Part shown: piece by piece, positions 6,656 to 48,147 of the stretch
How the letters are laid out: every line of letters starts with the position of its first letter
Position numbering within the stretch: the first letter of the stretch is position 1
Assembly (NCBI GenBank): GCA_013360395.1
Contig: JABWBQ010000002.1
Location: 16,703 to 80,702 of the forward strand
Source: Flavobacteriales bacterium
Lineage (GTDB): Bacteria > Bacteroidota > Bacteroidia > Flavobacteriales_F > PHOS-HE28
DNA: 64,000 nucleotides
Reading direction: 5' to 3'
Program-made: the position numbers and the translations under genes
The notes under the pieces: model-generated
Database searches by the model: none
The model's input: the letters and a program-made list of their open reading frames with translations, nothing else
What the model was told of the DNA's origin: nothing

Positions 6656-7483
6656 ATGGCGCGATCGCTGCGCTTGCGGATGTTCGCTGGGCCGAACGGG
6701 TCCGGAAAGACGACCATCATCAATGCGGTACGCAAGGCCCGGGTGAACGGCCGTCCCGTGGATCTGGGTGCGTACATCAACGCGGATGACATTGCGAAGG
6801 CCCTCGGCAAGGGCTACGACCTTGCGCCCTTCGAGCTTGAACTTGATGCCGAACGCTTCCTGGCCTTTGCGGCCGCTTCCGGTCTGTTGGACAAGGAGTT
6901 CATGCTGAAGGACCTGGAGCATGGCGTGGTCTGGACCAGCGATCGCGTACGTTCCAAACCTTCACTGCCAAAGGACCGTGTGGCCCAGCTGATCGCGCAG
7001 TTCCTGTACGATGAGCTGCTCACTGCGAAGCGCAAGTTCTCGCTCGAGACGGTGTTCAGTCACCCGAACAAGTTGGAACTGATGAAGCGGGCCAAAGCAA
7101 TGGGCTACAAGGTGTACCTCTACTTCATTTCCACGGAAGATCCTGCGATCAACGTCCAACGGGTGAAGGATATCCGCGTGAAACAGGGTGGCCATGATGT
7201 GCCGAAGGACAAGATCATCAGCCGCTACCATCGGACCATGGCGAATCTGCCGGAAGCGCTATCGATCGCCTACCATGCCTACCTATGGGACAACTCGAAG
7301 CACGGTTCTGCCCAGTTGTTCTGCGAGATGAAGCGGACGGATGACGGTACGCTCTGGGACATCGATCCCACGTTGGTGCCGATCTGGTTCCTGCCCTACT
7401 TGTTGGAGCTCCCGGAGGCGGGAGATCTTTCTCATGTGTATTGGAAGGCGATGGAGCGATTCAGGGATCCTTCAGGGGAGTGA
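6656..7483 (+). CDS. zeta-toxin-like P-loop kinase / AAA family ATPase
   Basis: N-terminal Walker A FAGPNGSGKTTI, size ~275 aa, with acidic residues placed as in zeta/PezT-type UNAG kinases. GC is lower than the flanks. Confidence 0.5.
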   Translation: MARSLRLRMFAGPNGSGKTTIINAVRKARVNGRPVDLGAYINADDIAKALGKGYDLAPFELELDAERFLAFAAASGLLDKEFMLKDLEHGVVWTSDRVRSKPSLPKDRVAQLIAQFLYDELLTAKRKFSLETVFSHPNKLELMKRAKAMGYKVYLYFISTEDPAINVQRVKDIRVKQGGHDVPKDKIISRYHRTMANLPEALSIAYHAYLWDNSKHGSAQLFCEMKRTDDGTLWDIDPTLVPIWFLPYLLELPEAGDLSHVYWKAMERFRDPSGE

Positions 7484-9405: not shown

Positions 9406-9882
9406 TCCCAATTCGCACTAAGACGTAGGCCGAACTACTCGGTCTCTTTCCGCATGACTTCTCCGTCGTGATCGTTCCGCAGCCCATGCTATGCAACGCC
9501 CCCGCCGTATCGTCCTGTGTAGTGATCCCTTCGTATCTCTAGCCTACGCCTTCGTGCGAAATGGGATAAGCGGATACGGGTTGAACGGGACGGCCGCGTT
9601 CAGGGCGGCAGCCATGTTCCGCGCCGGGTGTGGTGTGGTTGGTGCACCGAAGTGTAAGGGTGGAGCACTGAACCCGCGTGACGGATCGCAGCGGCACCCC
9701 GCACCCCGAGGGCCCAGAGCGTAGCGCAGCGGAGTCGAAGGGTGCGAGGGGGAGGAGTACAGCGAAGAGCCGGACCCCGAGAACCCTGAGCGGAGGCTCT
9801 GCGAAGTCGAAGGGTGCGAGGGGGCACGCCCAAACCCACCTTCCATTTCACGCTTTCGACCGCGCACCGGTATTTTCGCGGC

Positions 9883-12800
9883 ATGTCAACAGCCGTAGCC
9901 CCTCCATACGTCCCCAAGCACAAGATCCGCGTGGTCACCGCCGCCTCGTTGTTCGATGGTCACGATGCCGCCATCAACATCATGCGGCGGATCATCCAGA
10001 GCACCGGCGCCGAGGTGATCCACCTGGGGCACGACCGCAGCGTGGAGGATGTGGTGAACACCGCGATCCAGGAGGATGCCCACGCCATTGCCATGACCAG
10101 CTACCAGGGCGGGCACGTGGAGTACTTCAAGTACATGCACGACCTGCTGAAGGAGAAGGGCGCGGGGCACATCAAGATCTTCGGCGGCGGCGGGGGTACC
10201 ATCCTGCCCAGCGAGATCGAGGAGTTGCACGCCTACGGCATCACGCGGCTGTACCACCCGGACGATGGCCGCGCCATGGGCCTGCAGGGCATGATCAACG
10301 ACATGCTGGAGCAGGCCGACTACGACCTGAGCGACCAGGTGAACGGTGAGGCGAAGAAGCTGACCCCGCAGAACTGGACGGCCATCGCCAAGCTGATCAG
10401 CACGGCGGAGAACCACCCGCAGGTGTTCGAGAAGATCGCCGACGAGGTCCACAAGAAGGCCGCGGCCAGCAAGGCGCCGGTGCTGGGCATCACGGGCACG
10501 GGCGGTGCGGGCAAGAGCAGCATGGTGGATGAGCTGATCCGTCGTTTCGTGCTGGACCAGCCCGGCAAGACCATCGGCGTGATCAGCGTGGACCCCAGCA
10601 AGCGCAAGACCGGCGGCGCGTTGCTGGGCGACCGCATCCGCATGAACAGCATCCGCGGCGAGCGGGTGTACATGCGCAGTCTCGCTACGCGGCAGAGCAA
10701 CCTCGCGCTCAGCAAGCACGTGAAGGAAGCCGTGGCCATCCTGAAGGCAGCGGGCTTCGACCTGGTGGTGCTGGAGACCAGCGGCATCGGCCAGAGCGAC
10801 ACCGAGATCCTGGATCACAGTGATGTTTCGCTCTACATCATGACGCCCGAGTTCGGTGCGGCCACGCAGCTGGAGAAGATCGACATGCTCGACTTCGCCG
10901 ACGTGGTGGCCATCAACAAGTTCGACAAGCGCGGCGCCCTCGATGCCCTGCGCGACGTGAAGAAGCAGTACAAGCGCAACCACCAACTGTGGGACGCCAA
11001 GGACGAGGACCTGCCCGTGGTGGGCACCATCGCCAGCCAGTTCAACGACCCCGGCACCAACGCCCTCTACGCGCGGCTGATGCGCAAGATCAAGGAGAAG
11101 ACCGGCATCGAGCTCGATAGCAGCTTCCACGCGCACGACGAGATGAGCGAGAAGGTGTGGATCATCCCGCCCGCCAAGAGCCGCTATCTGAGCGAGATCA
11201 GCGAGAGCAATCGGAGGTATGATGGCAAGGTGCGCAAGCAGGCGGAGATCGCGGACAAGCTGTACGGGTTGTATTCGGCTGTACTCACCTTCGGTGGCAC
11301 TGACCTTTTGGAGTCGGAAGTCCCGAGGCCCCTGAGTCACGAGTCGGGCGCGAAAGCGACTCACGACTCACGACTTACGGACTCAGTCGACTTCCTCATT
11401 CAAAGGTTCGAAGAACTGAAGAAAGACCTGGATCCCCACCTCTGGTCCATGCTCCAGAACTGGAAGGCCGAGGAGGAACGCTACTCCGGCGAGTTCTACA
11501 CCTACACCGTGCGAGGCAAGGAGATCAAGGTGCCGAACCACAGCGAGAGCCTCAGTCACCTGAAGATCCCGAAAGTCGCGCTGCCGAAGTTCCGCAGCTG
11601 GGGCGACAAGGTGCGTTGGGCCATGCAGGAGAACACGCCCGGCTTCTTCCCCTACACCGCGGGCATCTACCCGTTCAAGCGCACCGGCGAGGACCCCGCG
11701 CGGATGTTCGCCGGCGAGGGCGGCCCCGAGCGCACCAACAAGCGCTTCCACTACGTGAGCCAGGGCATGCCCGCCAAGCGCCTCAGCACCGCCTTCGACA
11801 GCGTGACGCTCTATGGCAACGACCCCGGCCGTCGTCCCGACATCTACGGCAAGGTGGGCAACAGCGGCGTGAGCATCTGCTGCCTCGACGATGCCAAGAA
11901 GCTCTACAGCGGCTTTGACCTCAGCGACCCGAAGACCTCGGTGTCCATGACCATCAACGGTCCCGCGCCCATGCTGCTCGGCTTCTTCATGAACGCGGCG
12001 ATCGACCAGAACTGTGAGAAGTACATACGGGAGCACGGGTTGGAGAAGGAGGTGGAGAAGAAGATCAAGGAGCGCTGGGAGAAGTTGGAGAAGGCGAATG
12101 GCGAATGGTCAATGGCGAATGGAGGGCGCGGCTTTTCCCATTCACCAACTCCCATTCACCATTCACCTCGACCTCGCTACCACGGAGACATACCTGCGGG
12201 GAACGATGGTCTGGGCTTGCTCCTCCTCGGCATCACCGGCGACCAGGTCCTCCCGAAAGACGTCTACGAGAAGATCAAGGCCGAAACGCTGCAACAGGTC
12301 CGCGGCACCGTGCAGGCCGACATCCTGAAGGAAGACCAGGCGCAGAACACCTGCATCTTCAGCACCGAGTTCGCGCTGCGGCTCATGGGCGACGTGCAGC
12401 AGTACTTCATCGACAAGAAAGTCCGCAACTTTTACAGCGTCAGCATCAGCGGCTACCACATCGCGGAGGCCGGCGCCAACCCCATCAGCCAGCTCGCCTT
12501 CACGCTGGCCAACGGCTTCACCTACGTGGAGTACTACCTGAGCCGCGGCATGGACATCAACGCTTTCGCGCCGAACCTCAGCTTCTTCTTCAGCAACGGC
12601 ATGGACCCCGAGTACGCCGTGATGGGCCGCGTGGCGCGCCGCCTCTGGGCCAAGGCGCTCAAGCACCGCTACGGCGCCGACGAGCGCAGCCAGATGCTGA
12701 AGTACCACATCCAGACCAGCGGCCGCAGCCTCCACGCGCAGGAGATCGACTTCAACGACATCCGCACCACGCTCCAGGCGCTGTACGCCATCTACGACAA

Positions 12801-13401
12801 CTGCAATTCGCTCCACACCAACGCCTACGACGAGGCCATCACCACGCCCACCGAGGAAAGCGTGCGCCGCGCCATGGCCATCCAGCTCATCATCAACAAG
12901 GAGCTCGGCTTGGCCAAGAACGAGAACCCGCTGCAGGGGTCATTCATCATTGAAGAGTTGACAGACCTCGTTGAGGAAGCGGTCTTGACGGAGTTCGACC
13001 GCATCACCGAGCGTGGCGGCGTGCTGGGCGCCATGGAGACCATGTACCAGCGCGGCAAGATCCAGGAGGAAAGTCTCTACTACGAAACGCTGAAGCACAC
13101 CGGCGAATACCCGATCATCGGGGTGAACACCTTCCTCAGCAGTAAAGGATCACCGACGATCCTGCCGAAGGAAGTGATCCGTGCCACGGAAGAGGAGAAG
13201 GAGGCGCAGATCGCAACGGTGGAGAACCTCAAGGCCGCCTACGCCCCCGAAGCCGCCAAGGCCCTGAAGGACCTGCAACAAGCGGCGGTCCACAACGAGA
13301 ATATGTTCGAGGTGCTGATGGAGGCGTGTAAGTATTGCTCGCTGGGGCAGCTGACTGCGGCGATGTTTGAGGTGGGGGGGCAGTACAGGAGGAATATGTA
13401 G
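9883..13401 (+). CDS. icmF: fused isobutyryl-CoA mutase (B12-binding domain + MeaB-like G-protein chaperone + mutase catalytic domain)
   Basis: N-terminal [12 protein letters not shown] (DxHxxG B12-binding motif). Central [13 protein letters not shown]-loop, [21 protein letters not shown] and the NKFD motif of MeaB/ArgK GTPases. C-terminal [20 protein letters not shown]... and [10 protein letters not shown]... of methylmalonyl-CoA-mutase-type TIM barrels. Start taken at ATG 9883 (ORF track begins at GTG 9814). Confidence 0.85.
11321..11395 (+). repeat. in-frame nested palindromic insertion inside icmF (codes [28 protein letters not shown])
   Basis: Outer arms cggaagtc/gacttcc. Inner arms gagtcacgagtcg / cgactcacgactc around gggcgcgaaagc. 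It lies in the linker after the GTPase domain and is absent from the expected mutase consensus. Confidence 0.5.
12093..12168 (+). repeat. in-frame hairpin insertion with tandem 9-mers inside icmF (codes ...[25 protein letters not shown]...)
   Basis: Left arm ggcgaatggcgaatggtcaatggcgaatggag. Right arm ctcccattcaccaactcccattcaccattcacc is its imperfect reverse complement, with loop ggcgcggcttttc. Confidence 0.55.
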
Positions 13402-13430
13402 CAGTAGCGTGGGAGGTTAACTTTGAGGAA

Positions 13431-13736
13431 ATGCCCAAGCTGTACGAGTACTTCGGTCTCATCTTTCTGTTCTACAGCGACGATCATGACCCCATGCATC
13501 TTCATGTGCGGCATGGCGACCGCGAGGGTATCGTCATGCTCATCATCGTGGAGGGCAATCTGGTTGAACTGCGTTGGCGGGCTAAACGCGGGGCGGCCAT
13601 GCTGAATGAAAAGGAACAGCGCGAGGCCGAGGCGTTCGTACGGGCCATGAAGAGCGACATCGTCGCCAAGTGGACCGCCTTCTACGTCGAACACAAGCGC
13701 ATCAAGCCTGAGCGCATAACCCGCCGGATCAAATGA
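13431..13736 (+). CDS. DUF4160 domain protein
   Basis: MPKLYEYFGLIFLFYSDDHDPMHLHVRHGD... matches the DUF4160 N-terminal signature (MP..F.G..I.FY.DH.PPH H). Begins 30 bp after the icmF stop. Confidence 0.75.
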   Translation: MPKLYEYFGLIFLFYSDDHDPMHLHVRHGDREGIVMLIIVEGNLVELRWRAKRGAAMLNEKEQREAEAFVRAMKSDIVAKWTAFYVEHKRIKPERITRRIK

Positions 13737-14050
13737 AGATCGCTGAGGACGTCCGTATCAAGAAGGCCACCTATATGGGTGACTACATCATTCGATTCGC
13801 CTTCACCGATGGCCATGTGAGCGAGATAGACTTCCATCCCTTCCTCAGCGCGGCCGGGCAAAATCCCATGAACAGCCAGTATTTGGATGTCCTGCGCTTC
13901 CGGGAGTTCAAGCTGCACCGCAATGTGGATGTGTACTGGGATGATTGGGAGATGTGCTTCCGGTTCGAGACGCTCTACGCGGGGAAGCTGCCGAAGATGC
14001 CAGCACCGCAACGGCGATCGGTTCGACGAAAGGTGACGGCCAACGCGTGA
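13733..14050 (+). CDS. DUF2442 domain protein
   Basis: ATGA overlap with DUF4160. ...YIIRFAFTDGHVSEIDFHPFL... is typical of DUF2442, the usual partner of DUF4160. Confidence 0.7.
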   Translation: MKIAEDVRIKKATYMGDYIIRFAFTDGHVSEIDFHPFLSAAGQNPMNSQYLDVLRFREFKLHRNVDVYWDDWEMCFRFETLYAGKLPKMPAPQRRSVRRKVTANA

Positions 14051-14058
14051 AGAACGCC

Positions 14059-14355
14059 ATGGTCATCGGCGTGAACACCTTCCTCCGCAGCAAAGGCTCA
14101 CCGACGATCCTGTCCGCCGTACGGCGGATGATCCGTGCCACGGAAGAAGAGAAAGAAGCGCAGATCGCGACGGTGGAGAACCTGAAAGCCGCCTACGCCC
14201 CCGAAGCCGCCAAAGCCCTGAAAGACCTGCAACAGGCGGCGGTGCGGAACGAGAATATGTCCGCGGTGCTGATGGAGGCGTGCAAGTACTGCTCGCTGGG
14301 TCAGCTTACGGCGGCGATGTTCGAAGTGGGGGGGCAGTATAGGAGGAACATGTGA
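14059..14355 (+). pseudogene. duplicated, ~10% diverged 3' fragment of icmF (last ~98 codons incl. stop; first reiteration)
   Basis: ...[17 protein letters not shown]...[73 protein letters not shown] against icmF residues ...[17 protein letters not shown]...[10 protein letters not shown]. Confidence 0.75.
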
Positions 14356-14374
14356 TGATGAGGATGCTGAGCGG

Positions 14375-14412
14375 GATTTGAGGTGGGGGGCAGTACAGAA
14401 GGAATATGTGAC
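14375..14412 (+). repeat. short reiteration of the icmF 3' terminus (gatttgaggtggggggcagtacagaaggaatatgtga)
   Basis: Matches icmF 13365-13401 (gtttgaggtgggggggcagtacaggaggaatatgtag). Third copy of the terminus. Confidence 0.7.
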
Positions 14413-14443
14413 TGGGTACCCGGCTCTGTCTTAACTTCGTGTC

Positions 14444-14659
14444 ATGGCCTCGGCGCACAACTACATCCAACTGTCGTCCCTTCCGGAGGATGTTCGCCAG
14501 CAGGTGCTCGACTTCATCGAGTTCCTGATGCGGCGCCGTCAGGGCAACGAGCCGAAGGAGAAGCGCAAGACACCGGTGCCCGGCCTGGCCAAAGGCATGG
14601 TCACCGTGCCAGCAGACTTCGATGCACCCTTGGATGACTTCAAGGAGTACATGGAATGA
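14444..14659 (+). CDS. DUF2281-like antitoxin (VapB-type partner of the PIN toxin)
   Basis: 71 aa. ...LPEDVRQQVLDFIEFLMRR... and the C-terminal DFDAPLDDFKEYME are characteristic of DUF2281 antitoxins. ATGA overlap with the PIN gene. Confidence 0.6.
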   Translation: MASAHNYIQLSSLPEDVRQQVLDFIEFLMRRRQGNEPKEKRKTPVPGLAKGMVTVPADFDAPLDDFKEYME

Positions 14660-15042
14660 AGCTGTTGCTTGACACGCACGTCCTGCTTTGGTTCCAGGCG
14701 GGCGACCAAGCATTGCCGAAAGCGGCCGAGCAGGCCATCCGATCCGAGGCCAATGAAGCGTTCGTCAGCATGGTCTCCTTCTGGGAGATCGGACTGAAGC
14801 ATAGCATTGGCAAGCTGCCCTTACGTAAGCCGCTGGATGTATTCCTCAGCACGATCACTGAGGCAGCATTCCAGATACTCCCGCTGGACATCCCACACAT
14901 TGTTGCTTCTTCGGCACTGCCGCTGCACCACCGAGACCCGTTCGACCGGATGCTGATCGGGCAGGCGAAGCATGAAGGCATGCACCTGATCACCGTGGAT
15001 GCGCAGTTCCGGGCATACGATGTGCCACTGATCGGTTTGTGA
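14656..15042 (+). CDS. vapC: PIN domain toxin (VapC family)
   Basis: 128 aa. N-terminal LLDTHVLLW and the conserved acidic residue positions of the PIN fold. Translationally coupled to the upstream small gene. Confidence 0.75.
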   Translation: MKLLLDTHVLLWFQAGDQALPKAAEQAIRSEANEAFVSMVSFWEIGLKHSIGKLPLRKPLDVFLSTITEAAFQILPLDIPHIVASSALPLHHRDPFDRMLIGQAKHEGMHLITVDAQFRAYDVPLIGL

Positions 15043-15118
15043 TGACCATCATGCTGAGCGAAGCGAAGTCCCGCCGTAGCGACCGTGGCCGAGGAACGAG
15101 GCGTACGGACGCTGGAGC

Positions 15119-15158
15119 GGGATTCGAGGTGGGGGGGCAGTACAGAAGGAACATGTAG
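15119..15158 (+). repeat. short reiteration of the icmF 3' terminus (gggattcgaggtgggggggcagtacagaaggaacatgtag)
   Basis: Fourth copy of the icmF terminus. Lies between the PIN gene and the Fic gene. Confidence 0.7.
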
Positions 15159-15186
15159 TGCTGTTCAGCATCACCAAGATGAACAC

Positions 15187-15969
15187 ATGCCTGTGGCCCT
15201 GCTAGTCAACACATACCTGCCAGCATATCGCGCACAGCTGAACCTGCCGCTCGCTGAGCTTATCGCCACGCTCGCCGAGGAGCGCAACGGTGGCGGCGCT
15301 GACCTGCTCAACCTGTATGAGAGCGCCGTGGCCAGCAGCCAGATCGAGGGCAGCAAGGTCACCCTCGACCTTTTCAAACGCACCATGGAGGCCGCTGGGA
15401 GCGGGCCCAGACCGCGCGATGTGCAGGAAGTGGCCGATCTGGTGAGCGCCTACCGCTTCGCTCAAGTGAACCCGCTCAACATCGCCAACCTGCTCGAAGC
15501 GCACCGCATCGCATCAGCATTGCTCGTCAACGCCAACGATCGTGGCGCCTGGCGCACAAAGGGCGTTAAGGTGGGCAATGCCATCACCACCGTGTACATG
15601 GCCCCGCATCAGAGCCTGGTGCCATCGCTCATGGACCAGCTGATGGAGGAGACCGGTACGCTCTTGGATCAGAAGCTCACAATCGAAGAGGCGTTCTATT
15701 TCGCCGCGCTCCTGCACCTCGTCTTCGTCAAGGTGCATCCTTTCATCGACGGCAATGGACGCACCGGCCGTCTATTGGAGAAGTGGTTCCTCGAGAGCCA
15801 CATCGGCCCGATCGCATGGAGCATCCGCAGCGAACGCTACCTGATCCGCAACCTCGACGATTACTACGATACACTTGCCGCTGTCGGACCGGATTGGGGT
15901 AGCTTGCAATGGGACCGCTGTCTGCCCTTCATGCTGCTGTTGCCGCAGGCGCTTACCATGAAACGATAG
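15187..15969 (+). CDS. Fic family protein (Fic/Doc AMPylase-type)
   Basis: Canonical Fic motif HPFIDGNGRTGR. Start taken at ATG 15187; the ORF-track extension to 15085 runs through the repeat copy. Confidence 0.8.
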   Translation: MPVALLVNTYLPAYRAQLNLPLAELIATLAEERNGGGADLLNLYESAVASSQIEGSKVTLDLFKRTMEAAGSGPRPRDVQEVADLVSAYRFAQVNPLNIANLLEAHRIASALLVNANDRGAWRTKGVKVGNAITTVYMAPHQSLVPSLMDQLMEETGTLLDQKLTIEEAFYFAALLHLVFVKVHPFIDGNGRTGRLLEKWFLESHIGPIAWSIRSERYLIRNLDDYYDTLAAVGPDWGSLQWDRCLPFMLLLPQALTMKR

Positions 15970-16060
15970 CATTGCGAGGAAGTGATCCGTGCCACCGAGG
16001 AAGAGAAGGAGCCGCAGATCGCGACGGTGGAGAACCTGAAATCCGCCTACGCCCCCGAGG
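15966..16060 (+). repeat. partial internal copy of the icmF tail (corresponds to icmF ~13170-13262: ...[25 protein letters not shown]...)
   Basis: gaagtgatccgtgccaccgaggaagagaaggagccgcagatcgcgacggtggagaacctgaaatccgcctacgcccccgag matches the icmF coding sequence and then diverges. Confidence 0.6.
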
Positions 16061-16129
16061 GGCCAAGGAACGCTTCACCTCCGGGAACGAGTGGCCGGAC
16101 TTTGGGTCGCTTACACACCGCCGTGCGGA

Positions 16130-17173
16130 TCAAGGGAAACAGAATCCGCCGGGGATGATGCCCGCTAGGAAGCTGCCGAGCTCCGTTCCGCCGGGGCTGT
16201 ACCGAAGGACCACACCGTGTTGCACGTAATCGACCGCATCGGAGACGTAGATGGTACCATTGTCCGGATCCACGCCGAGGCCGTAGAAGTTGCGGTTGTC
16301 GGCGGGGATGAAGGCATTGGTCGGCAGGACGCTGTCGTGGATGGCCATGCGGTACACCCCGCCGTCGAGGAAGTACAGCACATCGTGTGCGTCGTTGATG
16401 GTGAGCCGCCACGGTGATGCGGAAGCGGGAAAGGCGAAGCTGGCCTCCACCGCGAGCGTGGCGGGATCGAAGCGATGCAGTGCCGGGGCGATGCCGCCGC
16501 CCATGGACCCGCCGCAGAGGACCCAGAGCCTGCCGTTGGCATCCTGCCGGATGCTGCTGCCCCCGATGGAGACGGGGATGCTGTCGATGAGCTGGTCCGT
16601 CGCGGTGTCGATCACCAGCACCTGGTCGCCTTCCGGTGCGGTGACGAAGGCTTTTCCGTAGGCGAGCGCCAACTCCTCCGTCCGCCCGGGCACGGGGATG
16701 CTGCCGGTGATGGTGTTGGTGACCAGGTCCACCACGGCGATGGCATCCGCGAACAGGTCGGTCACGTAGGCCTTGCCATTGCTCACGGGCAGCAGGTAGC
16801 GCGGCGAACTGAACCCGGTGATGGTCGCGGTGGCGACGAAGGTCTGCGGGTCCACCACCACCACCTTGCCGGAGTTGTTCACGACCAGGTAGCCGCGGTC
16901 GTTGAACAGCGTCATGCTCTGGCACACATCCCCCAGCGCGCTGCCGTTCGCGGGCGCGTAGAGGTCCTCCACGGTGGTGCCGTTCGTCCTGTCGTGGTAG
17001 CTCACCGTCGCGTTGCCCCATCCGAAGTTGCCCTCGTTGGTGATGTACACCCCGTCAGAGCCGACCACGACCGGCGTGTCGTCCGGTGGTCCCGGTCGGT
17101 CCTTGCGGCAGGACGACGATCCCAGGGCGAGCAATGCGAGGCAGAGGAGCAGGAGCTTAGTACGCATGGGCAA
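16130..17173 (-). CDS. YncE-like beta-propeller lipoprotein (DUF5074-like), B12-uptake-locus associated
   Basis: Lipoprotein signal ...LALGSSSC. Repeated YVTD/IYVSD-type propeller motifs. Last gene of the riboswitch-controlled operon. Confidence 0.55.
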   Translation of the reverse strand: MPMRTKLLLLCLALLALGSSSCRKDRPGPPDDTPVVVGSDGVYITNEGNFGWGNATVSYHDRTNGTTVEDLYAPANGSALGDVCQSMTLFNDRGYLVVNNSGKVVVVDPQTFVATATITGFSSPRYLLPVSNGKAYVTDLFADAIAVVDLVTNTITGSIPVPGRTEELALAYGKAFVTAPEGDQVLVIDTATDQLIDSIPVSIGGSSIRQDANGRLWVLCGGSMGGGIAPALHRFDPATLAVEASFAFPASASPWRLTINDAHDVLYFLDGGVYRMAIHDSVLPTNAFIPADNRNFYGLGVDPDNGTIYVSDAVDYVQHGVVLRYSPGGTELGSFLAGIIPGGFCFP

Positions 17174-46078: not shown

Positions 46079-47356
46079 TCAACGGCGGCGGGCTTTGGAG
46101 CGACGTGCGGCGAGCACGGCCGCGGCGCGCTCGATGATGCCCACCACCAGGGCATTGCCCATCAGGAACGCGCGGCGTGTGTCCGGGACCCCGGCCGTGT
46201 GGCCGTCGGGGAACATGTTCAGCCGTTCGAGCTCCACGGGGGTCAGCCGCCGCAGTTCGCCGGTCCCCGTGCGCACCACGTGCTTGAAGCGCGAGGCGGA
46301 GGCACCGCCCTCGGCGGTGATGATGGTGCGCGAGGGCTTGTCCAGCGCGTCGGGGAAGGCCATGCCGCCTTCGGCATAGCGGTAGGTGTGACCCGTGCTC
46401 CGGCTGGTGCGCTCCACCTTCTTGGCCCCCTTGGCGAACTCCCAGCGGGGAAGGTCGCGCGGCGCCAGATAGAACGAACGCGGCACCTGGTCGTCCGGCA
46501 GCAGTACATCGCCCAGCGTAGTGCGCGGTCCGCGGTGGTCGGGCGCCGTCCGGATGGTCCACACCCGGCGGCCTGCCATGACGCCGGCATCGGCGAAGGG
46601 GCTGCGTGCGGTCGAGGGTCCGGCGTTGAAGCTTTCGGTGAGCTCGGCCAGGTCGCCCTGCAACGCGAAGCTGCGGAAGGCGCGCTCGGCGGCCTGGACC
46701 GGAAAGGCCTCGGCCAGGATGCCGTCGTGCAGCACCCAGTCCTCCAACCCGCGGCCGGCAAGGAGCCGGCGGCCGATCGGGGTGCTGCGGTGGTGGCCCA
46801 GGAAGAACACGCGGCGGCGGCGTTGGGGCATGCCGTGGTCGGCCGCGTTGATCACCCGCCATTCCACGGCGTAACCCAGGTCGGCCAGCGAGGCCAGCAT
46901 CACGGCGAAATCGCGGCCGCGTTGCCCGGCGGGCGACTTCAGCAGGCGGTCCACGTTCTCCAGCAGCAGATGGTCCGGCTTGTGGCGCTTGTCGCGGAGG
47001 ATGCGATGGATGTCCCACCAGAGCACGCCCTTGCGGCCCTGCAGGCCGGCGGCCCCGTTCAGGCTGCGGGCCACCGAATAGTCCTGGCATGGAAAACCGC
47101 CCACCAGCAGGTCATGGTCGGGAATAGCGGCGGCGTCCACCGTGGCGATGTCGGCATTGCAGTGGCCCTTCGCACCGAACCGCGCGACGTAGATGTCCGA
47201 GGCGTCCTGCTTGCGCGTGGCGGGCTCCCACTGGTTGCTCCACACCACGCGATAGACCTTGGAGGCACGCTCCAGGCCCACCCGGAATCCGCCCACGCCG
47301 GCGAACAGCTCGACCACCCGTACGGGCTCCGGACTTTTCCTGGGCATGGCGCGCAA
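46079..47356 (-). CDS. DNA (cytosine-5)-methyltransferase
   Basis: Motif I FAGVGG, motif IV GFPCQ (catalytic Cys), motif VI ENV, a target-recognition region, and C-terminal motifs IX/X. Confidence 0.85.
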   Translation of the reverse strand: MRAMPRKSPEPVRVVELFAGVGGFRVGLERASKVYRVVWSNQWEPATRKQDASDIYVARFGAKGHCNADIATVDAAAIPDHDLLVGGFPCQDYSVARSLNGAAGLQGRKGVLWWDIHRILRDKRHKPDHLLLENVDRLLKSPAGQRGRDFAVMLASLADLGYAVEWRVINAADHGMPQRRRRVFFLGHHRSTPIGRRLLAGRGLEDWVLHDGILAEAFPVQAAERAFRSFALQGDLAELTESFNAGPSTARSPFADAGVMAGRRVWTIRTAPDHRGPRTTLGDVLLPDDQVPRSFYLAPRDLPRWEFAKGAKKVERTSRSTGHTYRYAEGGMAFPDALDKPSRTIITAEGGASASRFKHVVRTGTGELRRLTPVELERLNMFPDGHTAGVPDTRRAFLMGNALVVGIIERAAAVLAARRSKARRR

Positions 47357-47454
47357 AACTATCGTAACCCTGCGGCCGGCCGAACCACCACCTTACGCTG
47401 TGGATGCCCGGCCCGCGCCAGGGGCGGTGCCGGGCTCCGCCGTTCCTTTGCCCC

Positions 47455-48147
47455 ATGTGCTACTCCACCACCCTGGACCGCGAACTGGCGGTACTGGAGA
47501 AGCGGCTGAACCGCAGGCTGATCGACGCGCTGCGGCCTCCGGCCGGGTCCGGCCACGACGTCGAGCTCCTGCTGCCCCTGGCGCGGACCAGCGCCTTTGC
47601 GCGACCGTTGTGGCCGGTGGTCTCGAGCAAGGCGATGCAGCGGATCAGCGTGCAACGCTGGGGCCTGCTGCCGAAGTTCATCCGCACCGAGGAGGAGGCG
47701 AAGGACTTCCTGCGGAAGGCGCCCACCTTCAACGCGATCAGTGAGGAGGTGGGGACCAAGCGCACCTTCAAACACGCTTTCGAGAACGGGCAGCGGTGCC
47801 TGGTGCCGGTGACGAGCTTCTACGAATGGCGGCACGAGGGGAAGAAGAAGATCCCGTACCGCATCGGAATGAAAGGAGGCGATGTATTCTGCCTCGGCGG
47901 CCTGTGGGAGGAGAACGCAGGCGTGGACACCTACACCATCCTCACCACGCGCGCCAACCCGCTGATGGCGCACATCCACAACACCAAGCAGCGCATGCCG
48001 GTGATCATCCCCGAGGTCCAATGGGACGCCTGGCTCTCGCCCGATCTGCCCCCCGCGGAGGTGATGCGGTTGTGCGAGCCGCTGCCCGAGGAGGCGATGG
48101 AGGCCGTGCTGGACGCACCGGGGCCGACCCAGGGGGCGTTGTTCTGA
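47455..48147 (+). CDS. SOS response-associated peptidase (SRAP/YedK-like, abasic-site processing)
   Basis: Start at internal MCYST... (Cys2 nucleophile typical of SRAP). Conserved ...VPVTSFYEW... and the C-terminal His region. Confidence 0.7.
   Translation: MCYSTTLDRELAVLEKRLNRRLIDALRPPAGSGHDVELLLPLARTSAFARPLWPVVSSKAMQRISVQRWGLLPKFIRTEEEAKDFLRKAPTFNAISEEVGTKRTFKHAFENGQRCLVPVTSFYEWRHEGKKKIPYRIGMKGGDVFCLGGLWEENAGVDTYTILTTRANPLMAHIHNTKQRMPVIIPEVQWDAWLSPDLPPAEVMRLCEPLPEEAMEAVLDAPGPTQGALF

Follow-up and report, generated by a model that had tools for sequence, protein, structure and literature searches.

A window of 64,000 nt was analysed from a Flavobacteriales bacterium (GenBank assembly GCA_013360395.1, contig JABWBQ010000002.1, positions 16,703 to 80,702 of the forward strand). 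Coordinates below refer to this window unless a locus from another genome (L001, L079 and so on) is named. The open reading frames (ORFs) under study, ORF1 and ORF2, lie at 13431-14050 on the + strand and are together referred to as Cassette A. They encode a DUF4160 protein and a divergent DUF2442-like protein, and stand directly behind icmF, the gene for a fused isobutyryl-CoA mutase/GTPase. Within a stack of cassettes (DhiTA-like, VapB plus PIN, and Fic), each followed by a fossil icmF 3' end, the pair lies closest to icmF. The analysis supports Cassette A as an intact, expressed-looking type II toxin-antitoxin (TA) module of the DhiT/DhiA family with the toxin gene first. The explanation as a whole, an intact DhiT/DhiA-type module lying in an icmF-anchored displacement stack, is considered likely. 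As a member of an already tested family, divergent but intact, the pair is unsurprising in itself; its stack context is the more interesting.

Probable identity of the toxin and antitoxin genes

ORF1 (13431-13736, + strand, 101 aa) was assigned as a DUF4160/DhiT-family toxin gene from Pfam, NCBIfam model NF048015, homology to a Thermus protein and a structure model. It scored 37.3 bits against PF13711 (DUF4160; gathering score 23, E = 3.2e-9, residues 9-81), in agreement with the DUF4160 call of an earlier, sequence-only reading of this DNA. When annotated plasmids were searched by tblastn, only small Thermus thermophilus plasmids (Murakami, Niigata) were matched, on which a DUF4160 gene is followed by a DUF2442 gene. 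ORF1 and the Thermus plasmid toxin share 43% identity over the first 47 aa, with an HHalign probability of 96.5%. The DH-x-P-x-H-x-H motif of ORF1 aligns with DHDPPHFH of the Thermus protein, and the N-terminal MP....G is likewise shared.

An alignment of 52 sequences contained invariant positions M1, P2, K3, L4, Y5, Y7, G9, H19, P21, H23, H25, L58 and I77. E32 and the C-terminal P93, E94, I96, T97, R98 and R99 were nearly invariant. In the subfamily of the window toxin, the C-terminal half is helical and conserved, and the tail is basic (KPERITRR.K). The AlphaFold 2 model (pLDDT 91.7, pTM 0.85) comprises a five-stranded sheet, two helices and a C-terminal strand. In it, H23 and H25 alternate on one strand of a beta-hairpin, H19 lies in the preceding loop and E32 begins the next strand. 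No confident structural homologue of the model was found, which agrees with what has been reported for DUF4160 (PMC12065111). In the model, H19, H23, H25 and E32 form a possible metal site. Because the invariant H19-x-P-x-H23-x-H25 cluster and E32 lie on this hairpin, the toxin may be speculated to act on nucleic acid, most likely RNA, as a small metal-dependent enzyme. The only hint of activity found was a Synechocystis DUF4160 protein listed as a candidate RNA-associated protein in Grad-seq (PMC8136920). The invariant histidine cluster and the confident model provide concrete targets for mutagenesis.

ORF2 (13733-14050, + strand, 105 aa) was assigned as a divergent DUF2442-like (DhiA-type) antitoxin gene from Pfam, its homologues and Foldseek. 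The earlier DUF2442 call holds in this qualified form. ORF2 scored 22.5 bits against PF10387 (DUF2442; E = 1.3e-4), just under the gathering score of 23.9. Many homologues with 70-94% identity carry a precomputed PF10387 match and the NCBI name "DUF2442 domain-containing protein". The AlphaFold model of ORF2 was of moderate quality (pLDDT 70.7). A Foldseek search of the PDB with this model gave 2auw_A/B (NE0471) as the top match (probability 1.00, E = 3e-3, TM-score 0.47-0.55). This was the sole meaningful match; 3k8r was weaker and ranked 13th. Both structures are presumed here to represent the DUF2442 family. From approximately residue 90, the C-terminal tail of ORF2 is variable and disordered, and it differs between genomic contexts.

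Several results weigh against placing the pair in the DhiT/DhiA family. ORF1 matched NF048015 (toxin DhiT) with E = 8.5e-8 and 32.7 bits, far under the equivalog cut-off of 100, and it was therefore treated as a relative of DhiT and not as an orthologue or equivalog. The tested toxins align with the N-terminal half of ORF1 only. ORF2 is under the Pfam gathering score and showed no similarity to the Thermus plasmid DUF2442 protein by BLASTP or HHalign.

ORF2 also had no NCBIfam match. For neither protein did sequence searches against solved structures give a significant match. In PHROGs, the sole match for the pair was weak and to a family of unknown function, and no close relative of the toxin was found in a collection of 2.9 M viral contigs. 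Rfam detected no known RNA in window 13000-16400.

Selection, linkage and promoter of the pair

Both ORFs are real genes under strong purifying selection, as judged from their sequence comparisons. Ratios of nonsynonymous to synonymous substitution (dN/dS) were calculated against 15 close homologues. ORF1 gave 0.02-0.08 and the 88 conserved codons of ORF2 gave 0.03-0.09, at dS values of 0.7-2.5. The ATGA stop/start overlap of the two genes, which had been read at 13733-13736 and is present there, was kept in all 15 homologues.

Linkage was assessed in 80 metagenomic loci encoding a DUF4160 relative. Five of these were cut by contig ends, leaving 75 testable loci. The sequence-only reading had named missing profile matches, or non-toxic genes unlinked in homologous contexts, as grounds for its refutation; neither the profile matches above nor the linkage refutes it. 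In 75/75 loci a DUF2442-like ORF was found directly downstream of the toxin gene, in differing neighbourhoods. Across unrelated neighbourhoods, homology begins approximately 25 nt before the toxin ATG and ends just past the conserved core of ORF2. The same array was present in the independent assemblies GCA_021463405.1 and GCA_020848235.1, both Flavobacteriales metagenome-assembled genomes (MAGs), and on approximately 20 further contigs. The locus is therefore no assembly artefact.

The TA leader (13402-13430, + strand, 29 nt) contains a conserved TAnnTTTG box. In the window this box is TAACTTTG (13412-13419), 5 nt before the toxin ATG. An octamer of this form was found 5-6 nt before the toxin ATG in all Bacteroidota-type loci, including those in non-icmF contexts. 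In the whole window, only seven such octamers occur on both strands. TAnnTTTG is the known -7 element of Bacteroidota promoters. From the sequence, the pair probably has its own promoter with a putative -7 box, and its mRNA would be leaderless or near-leaderless. A sigma-70-type scan found no promoter, as expected. Transcription might also continue from icmF into the cassettes, as no terminator-like site was found on the + strand in between.

Tested relatives and function of the pair

The sequence-only reading had described such pairs as suspected TA-like modules with no established mechanism. The first part of this description was too weak, since the family has been tested as type II TA (PMC8198452; PMC12724237). 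The second part, on the biochemical mechanism, stands (PMC12065111). In Dickeya dadantii 3937, dhiTA consists of overlapping DUF4160 and DUF2442 genes with the toxin gene first. DhiT inhibits growth in Dickeya and in E. coli, and co-expression of DhiA relieves the inhibition. The dhiTA promoter is repressed by the antitoxin and more strongly by the complex (PMC8198452). A pair on a Thermus thermophilus plasmid raised plasmid persistence. Without the second ORF no transformants were obtained and the plasmid could not be established, and AlphaFold 3 predicts a heterodimer of the two proteins (PMC12724237). Of the plasmids matched here, that of SNM3-3 (pTthSNM3-3d, NZ_AP025612.1) is a likely example of the published module, which it fits by origin and ORF sizes only. 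DUF4160 is also an effector domain of the Menshen anti-phage system, in NsnC-like proteins, and most DUF4160 proteins are followed by DUF2442 proteins (PMC12065111).

The window pair shares with dhiTA the domain pair, the toxin-first order, the overlapping genes and the small size of the proteins. Unlike DhiT, the window toxin is from a different phylum and belongs to a longer subfamily (101 aa) with its own conserved C-terminal half and basic tail. The Thermus module is similar in the N-terminal beta-hairpin of the toxin with its DH-x-P-x-H-x-H motif, in gene order and in a partner annotated as DUF2442, but is plasmid-borne and has genes 10 nt apart instead of overlapping. In Menshen, too, the DUF4160 domain is seen as a toxic effector without a confident structural homologue. 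There it is fused within a larger defence protein, whereas here it stands alone with a dedicated partner. With the window pair, a TA family tested only in a gammaproteobacterium and in Thermus gains a divergent Bacteroidota subfamily.

By analogy with these tested relatives, the 101-aa toxin would arrest growth and the 105-aa partner would bind and neutralise it. The complex would repress the promoter of the pair, apparently at the TAnnTTTG -7 box.

A non-toxic pair, either a domesticated regulator pair or a decaying remnant, would be consistent with the divergence of ORF1 and ORF2 from the tested examples and with the antitoxin tail, which is remodelled at the junction with a fossil unit. This is very unlikely given the strong purifying selection, the intact frames, the conserved coupling and the conserved promoter box. 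The predicted residues that look catalytic are invariant, and the locus is stable across many samples.

The pair might instead serve mainly as an anti-phage abortive-infection module and not in addiction or stabilisation, a role that would be compatible with the explanation given above. In favour of this role, the neighbours in the stack, a PIN TA pair and the SoFic-like Fic protein, are of a defence type, Menshen uses DUF4160 as an effector domain (PMC12065111), and dhiTA gave no plasmid stabilisation in E. coli (PMC8198452). On the other hand, neither protein of the pair matched any model of the PADLOC defence library, and the Thermus module clearly raised plasmid persistence (PMC12724237). 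A mainly anti-phage role is accordingly rated as somewhat unlikely.

The icmF end and the cassette stack in the window

The gene upstream of Cassette A is icmF (9883-13401, + strand), as named in the sequence-only reading, and it is the conserved anchor gene of the array. It scored 1765 bits against NF045497 (cut-off 1500) and contains the Pfam domains B12-binding, MeaB and MM_CoA_mutase. Its longest ORF begins at 9814, but the start called in L120, 9883, is likely to be the true one. The TAG stop codon is at 13399-13401, which places the toxin gene after a spacer of 29 nt and not the 30 nt given before.

Downstream of icmF, its last 33-300 nt come back four more times and set the three cassettes apart. 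The window contains four copies of the 47 nt that end icmF (..GAGGTGGGGGGGCAGTACAGRAGGAAYATGTRR), at 13355, 14309, 14365 and 15112, where shuffled sequences would give 0 copies. The first of these is the terminal motif of the functional gene (R1, 13355-13401, + strand), and the others terminate non-coding units on the same strand. R2 (14063-14355) is a fossil covering the final ~290 nt of icmF. Its identity to the live copy is ~90%, with differences mostly at third codon positions, and it has a palindromic insertion, TCCGCCGTACGGCGGA, at ~14113-14128. The junction between the antitoxin gene and R2 is common to the window, L133 and L138. R3 (14365-14411) is a short fossil in which the terminal ~45 nt are kept. 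It is followed by Cassette B (14444-15042, + strand), with which it is co-inherited in L079. This cassette encodes a VapB-family antitoxin (DUF2281) and a PIN-domain toxin in ATGA-coupled genes, identified by Pfam and by NF050009 (80.4 bits, cut-off 60). A copy in L079 has ~86% DNA identity over the whole cassette, a frameshifted PIN gene and other neighbours.

R4 (15047-15158) is a hairpin-bearing fossil with a stable stem-loop followed by the terminal motif (DNA fold z = -3.5). Its counterpart in L079, at 90.6% identity, directly follows the icmF stop; the window has no other copy. Cassette C (15187-15969, + strand) encodes a Fic-domain protein identified by Pfam and by PADLOC as SoFic-like (SoFic, 101 bits). 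The Fic gene has no obvious partner gene and is followed by a truncated icmF fossil. This last unit, R5 (15977-16058, + strand), is an internal piece of the icmF 3' region (corresponding to 13169-13250) without the terminal motif; the array ends with it. The array (13.3-16.0 kb) has a GC content of 0.55-0.62, its flanks one of 0.64-0.70. No other gene end is duplicated in this way within the 64-kb window.

Non-coding fossil icmF ends were observed to gather GC-rich palindromic insertions of 16-45 nt, e.g. TCCGCCGTACGGCGGA and TCCCGGCTCGCAGGCCGGGA. These are located at 14113-14128 and 15066-15110 in the window, at ~4925, ~6195 and ~7460 in L001, and in the fossil unit of L133/L138. The functional icmF end has no such insertions.

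Stacks and the pair in other genomes

The icmF-end motif was scanned in one genome per species. It occurs once in most Bacteroidota, at the natural end of icmF, and several times in some Flavobacteriales and Crocinitomicaceae MAGs. The same architecture with different cargo was found in L001, L079, L056, L131-L133, L136, L138, L143 and L152. In L001, icmF is followed by ~8 co-oriented cassettes and ~9 fossil ends within 5.7 kb, and a homologue of the TA pair is third. In L079, the icmF stop is followed in order by a hairpin unit, a PIN_3 pair, the VapB plus PIN cassette as in the window and a ParE pair. Further on are a pair that is HicA/HicB-like by eye (no Pfam match) and a truncated DUF2442 start. 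A double motif in L077 was rejected as a scaffold-gap artefact. The icmF-end cassette stack is real, recurrent and strain-variable. No published description of it was found, and no report of icmF as an integration site was found in the literature.

The position of the pair was surveyed using close toxin relatives (at least 85% identity). It is at position 1 behind icmF in L133-L136 and L138, and deeper in the stack in L131, L132, L142, L143 and L152; over all such stacks, positions 1, 2 and 3 occur. At least 14 loci, plus L122-L130, carry it in places unrelated to icmF. Where the pair follows a decarboxylase gene, or lies between genes for an outer-membrane protein and a DUF3667 protein, no duplicated upstream gene end was found. 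The sequence-only reading had called the pair an independent cassette. This is correct insofar as it is a compact unit in several unrelated neighbourhoods. Beside icmF it is one layer of a stack and is exchanged jointly with the adjacent 3' part of icmF.

Two further arrangements of the pair were noted outside the icmF context. In L126 (8001-8291) and L127-L129, the toxin variant has 96 aa and the partner 110 aa. This variant pair begins ~22 nt past, or overlaps, the end of a gene for an ornithine/lysine/arginine decarboxylase, with no duplicated gene end. In L122 (6523-7093), four tandem repeats of ~148 nt stand immediately 5' of a homologous TA pair.

At least 119 genomes, most of them from various families of Bacteroidota, have the exact 25-nt icmF-end motif; the sample was retrieved by the motif and is hence biased. 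The motif contains rare codons for arginine (AGR AGG) and glycine (GGG GGG), which are kept even in the present high-GC genome, where the GC content at third codon positions of icmF is 0.89. Something more than the protein sequence may thus be under constraint.

Proposed growth of the stack

For the arrangement of the units, 36 were compared. On the right, every unit ends at the stop codon, with cassette-specific sequence following after 0-2 nt. The left edges vary from ~-40 to ~-400 nt. Units differ from each other at synonymous sites, e.g. GGG GGG, GGC GGA and GTT GGA for the two glycines, and are therefore relics of different functional icmF alleles.

Breakpoints were located inside icmF. 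The window is ~95% identical to L135 and L079 up to 12879, and 85-86% identical from 12884 through the icmF stop (the last ~520 nt). In one alignment, the lower identity between the window and L135 continues through the TA pair. L135 and L079 share 99.8% identity upstream; in the final 945 nt of icmF the figure falls to 91.5%, and beyond the stop their arrays are unrelated. The 3' part of icmF therefore travels with the cargo, and icmF would serve as a left homology arm. Lineages such as L134 and L135 have the pair behind icmF and no fossil after it, and resemble the donor state.

Recombinases were sought in the window and in the other arrays. No recombinase, integrase or transposase family was detected among the Pfam-examined genes of the window, 20 further genes included; this check covered most ORFs, some at 36.6-41.5 kb and 51.9-57.6 kb excepted, and several ORFs had no Pfam match. 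A crude regex screen found no recombinase-like ORF behind icmF in 119 genomes. None was found among the ORFs checked beyond the other arrays. The icmF-end motif was absent from the 2.9 M viral contigs.

These observations favour homology-anchored sequential insertion over an integron-type or prophage-type mechanism. In the proposed sequence of events, new DNA would enter by recombination, with the conserved icmF as left homology arm. The right join would be illegitimate, or would fall in an older fossil, and would be placed within or next to the resident gene end. Rather than being deleted, that old end and all DNA behind it would be displaced downstream. Resident TA pairs would bias the outcome toward insertion, on the hypothesis that recombinants deleting them are poisoned. 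The resulting chronological series of fossil gene ends may then serve as portable homology for the exchange of cassettes. A fixed right edge needs no enzyme under this mechanism, since it is the boundary between conserved coding DNA and lineage-specific DNA.

Several observations fit homology-anchored insertion less well. The hairpin unit is common to the window and L079, but different cassettes follow it. The short unit before Cassette B is shared, but its upstream neighbours differ. Such shared units and junctions with different neighbours imply additional recombination at the conserved ~33-40-nt core, either homologous or by a site-specific enzyme. R2 is no closer to the icmF ends of relatives than to R1 of the window, contrary to what R2 as the native allele would lead one to expect. 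The TA ratchet is not the whole story, because the cargo of L001 is mostly non-TA. That the icmF stop is, in a clade of Flavobacteriales, the growth point of a recombinase-free, integron-like stack with a TA ratchet, or else of one built by some trans-acting enzyme at the ~33-nt motif, is accordingly put forward as a tentative proposal, held with more doubt than conviction.

A closely similar arrangement is that of the orphan-immunity arrays of the V. cholerae type VI secretion system (T6SS), for which PMC9711863, citing Kirchberger et al. 2017, describes sequential displacement by homology-facilitated illegitimate recombination. Those arrays share with the icmF stack a left crossover in a conserved upstream gene and a non-homologous right junction. 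Older modules are pushed downstream and kept, gene-end stubs remain, and the retained modules protect from toxin. Unlike the T6SS arrays, the icmF stack is anchored by a housekeeping metabolic gene unrelated to the cargo, which is a mixture of TA, defence and membrane genes. The icmF end is also restored each time, leaving the series of fossil 3' ends seen in L001.

Stubs of a conserved gene are also carried by the orphan toxin-immunity modules of contact-dependent inhibition (CDI) and Rhs systems. Among known structures, such displacement and accretion arrays are closest to the stack, which may represent a new form of them.

The stack also resembles integron arrays in its compact, co-oriented units of one or two genes with a repeated element after each, in its enrichment for TA genes, and in the different arrays of close relatives. 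An integron-like site-specific system was considered, in which the ~33-40-nt icmF-end motif would be an attI-/attC-like site, the recombinase would be encoded elsewhere and cassettes would be mobile at the icmF stop. The sharp start of cassette-specific sequence 0-2 nt after each unit, the tight packing of cargo co-oriented with icmF and the retention of the terminal ~33-40 nt in all units, even where the remainder is replaced, would suit such a system. So would the hairpin unit shared by genomes with different following cassettes, and the common junction between the TA pair and the downstream unit in the window, L133 and L138. The sharp right edge is, however, expected anyway at a boundary of coding and lineage-specific DNA, and the left edges of the units are variable with no conserved second boundary. 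Ordinary units were unstructured relative to shuffles (z = -0.16 and +0.18) and had no GTTRRRY-type core; lacking structure and an R''/R' core, they are not attC-like. The exchange breakpoints lie 0.5-0.9 kb inside icmF and not at the motif. No IntI was found nearby, and the screens above found no recombinase, in most ORFs of the window or, crudely, behind icmF in the 119 genomes. An integron-like system is therefore considered unlikely.

Tandem direct repeats of a gene 3' end are the classic signature of accretion (PMC3146451; PMC5704250). The 3' end of icmF might accordingly be the attB site of a prophage, an integrative and conjugative element or an integrative and mobilizable element (IME), the cassettes being remnants like cis-mobilizable elements (CIME) and the repeats attL/attR scars. 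The lower GC content across 13.3-16.0 kb than in the flanks would also suit this origin. Known cases of accretion at gene 3' ends are the Dehalococcoides ssrA islands (PMC3146451), CIME/IME (PMC5704250) and tycheposons (bioRxiv 10.1101/2020.12.28.424599). The icmF stack is similar to them in its serial direct repeats with strain-variable cargo between. In the known cases, however, an element-encoded integrase produces the repeats, as short att cores of fixed extent, whereas those of icmF are long (units of up to 300-400 nt), derived from coding sequence and variable at the left, with no fixed core. No integrase was seen in any array or flank examined, and the motif occurred in 0 of the 2.9 M viral contigs. 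The cassettes measure 0.2-1.3 kb, hold one or two genes and contain no remnants of an element backbone. An attB origin is highly improbable, and homology-anchored insertion is preferred.

If homology-anchored insertion is correct, it would be a simple, enzyme-independent route to integron-like arrays beside a conserved gene, and the stack would be a natural record of successive acquisitions. It would also allow a test of the idea that TA modules grow hot spots of gene flow by penalising deletion.

Other candidates were rejected. A diversity-generating retroelement was rejected on the ordinary synonymous differences between units, the many copies and the lack of a reverse transcriptase. Tn7-like elements, IS200/IS605 and Xer/dif were rejected by inspection, with no dedicated scan, as no matching ends, inverted repeats or 28-nt dif-like sites were seen.

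Further observations

A GC-rich element of ~194 nt, bounded as GGTACC...GGTACC, was found inside the icmF genes of relatives (L079: 1546-1740 and 1972-2166; L135: 4259-4453). The insertions correspond to window positions ~12645 and ~12881; the window itself has no such element. The L079 copy at 1972-2166 reads through in frame. The copy tested folds into one long hairpin (RNA minimum free energy -124.9 kcal/mol, z = -8.9), and Rfam gave no match for the insertions in L079. The element resembles the in-frame palindromic miniature inverted-repeat transposable elements of Rickettsia. In L079 and L135, icmF homology stops upstream of IcmF residue 844.

Elsewhere in the window, a gene for a C-5 cytosine DNA methyltransferase (46079-47356) is divergent beside a gene for an SRAP (SOS-response-associated peptidase) protein (47404-48147), and no restriction enzyme was identified near the methyltransferase gene. 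At 6656-7483, 2.4 kb upstream of icmF, a Zeta-toxin-like protein is encoded (PF06414, 31 bits). Its gene is preceded by a small ORF, called as a 75-aa ORF in L120, with which it may form a TA-like pair.

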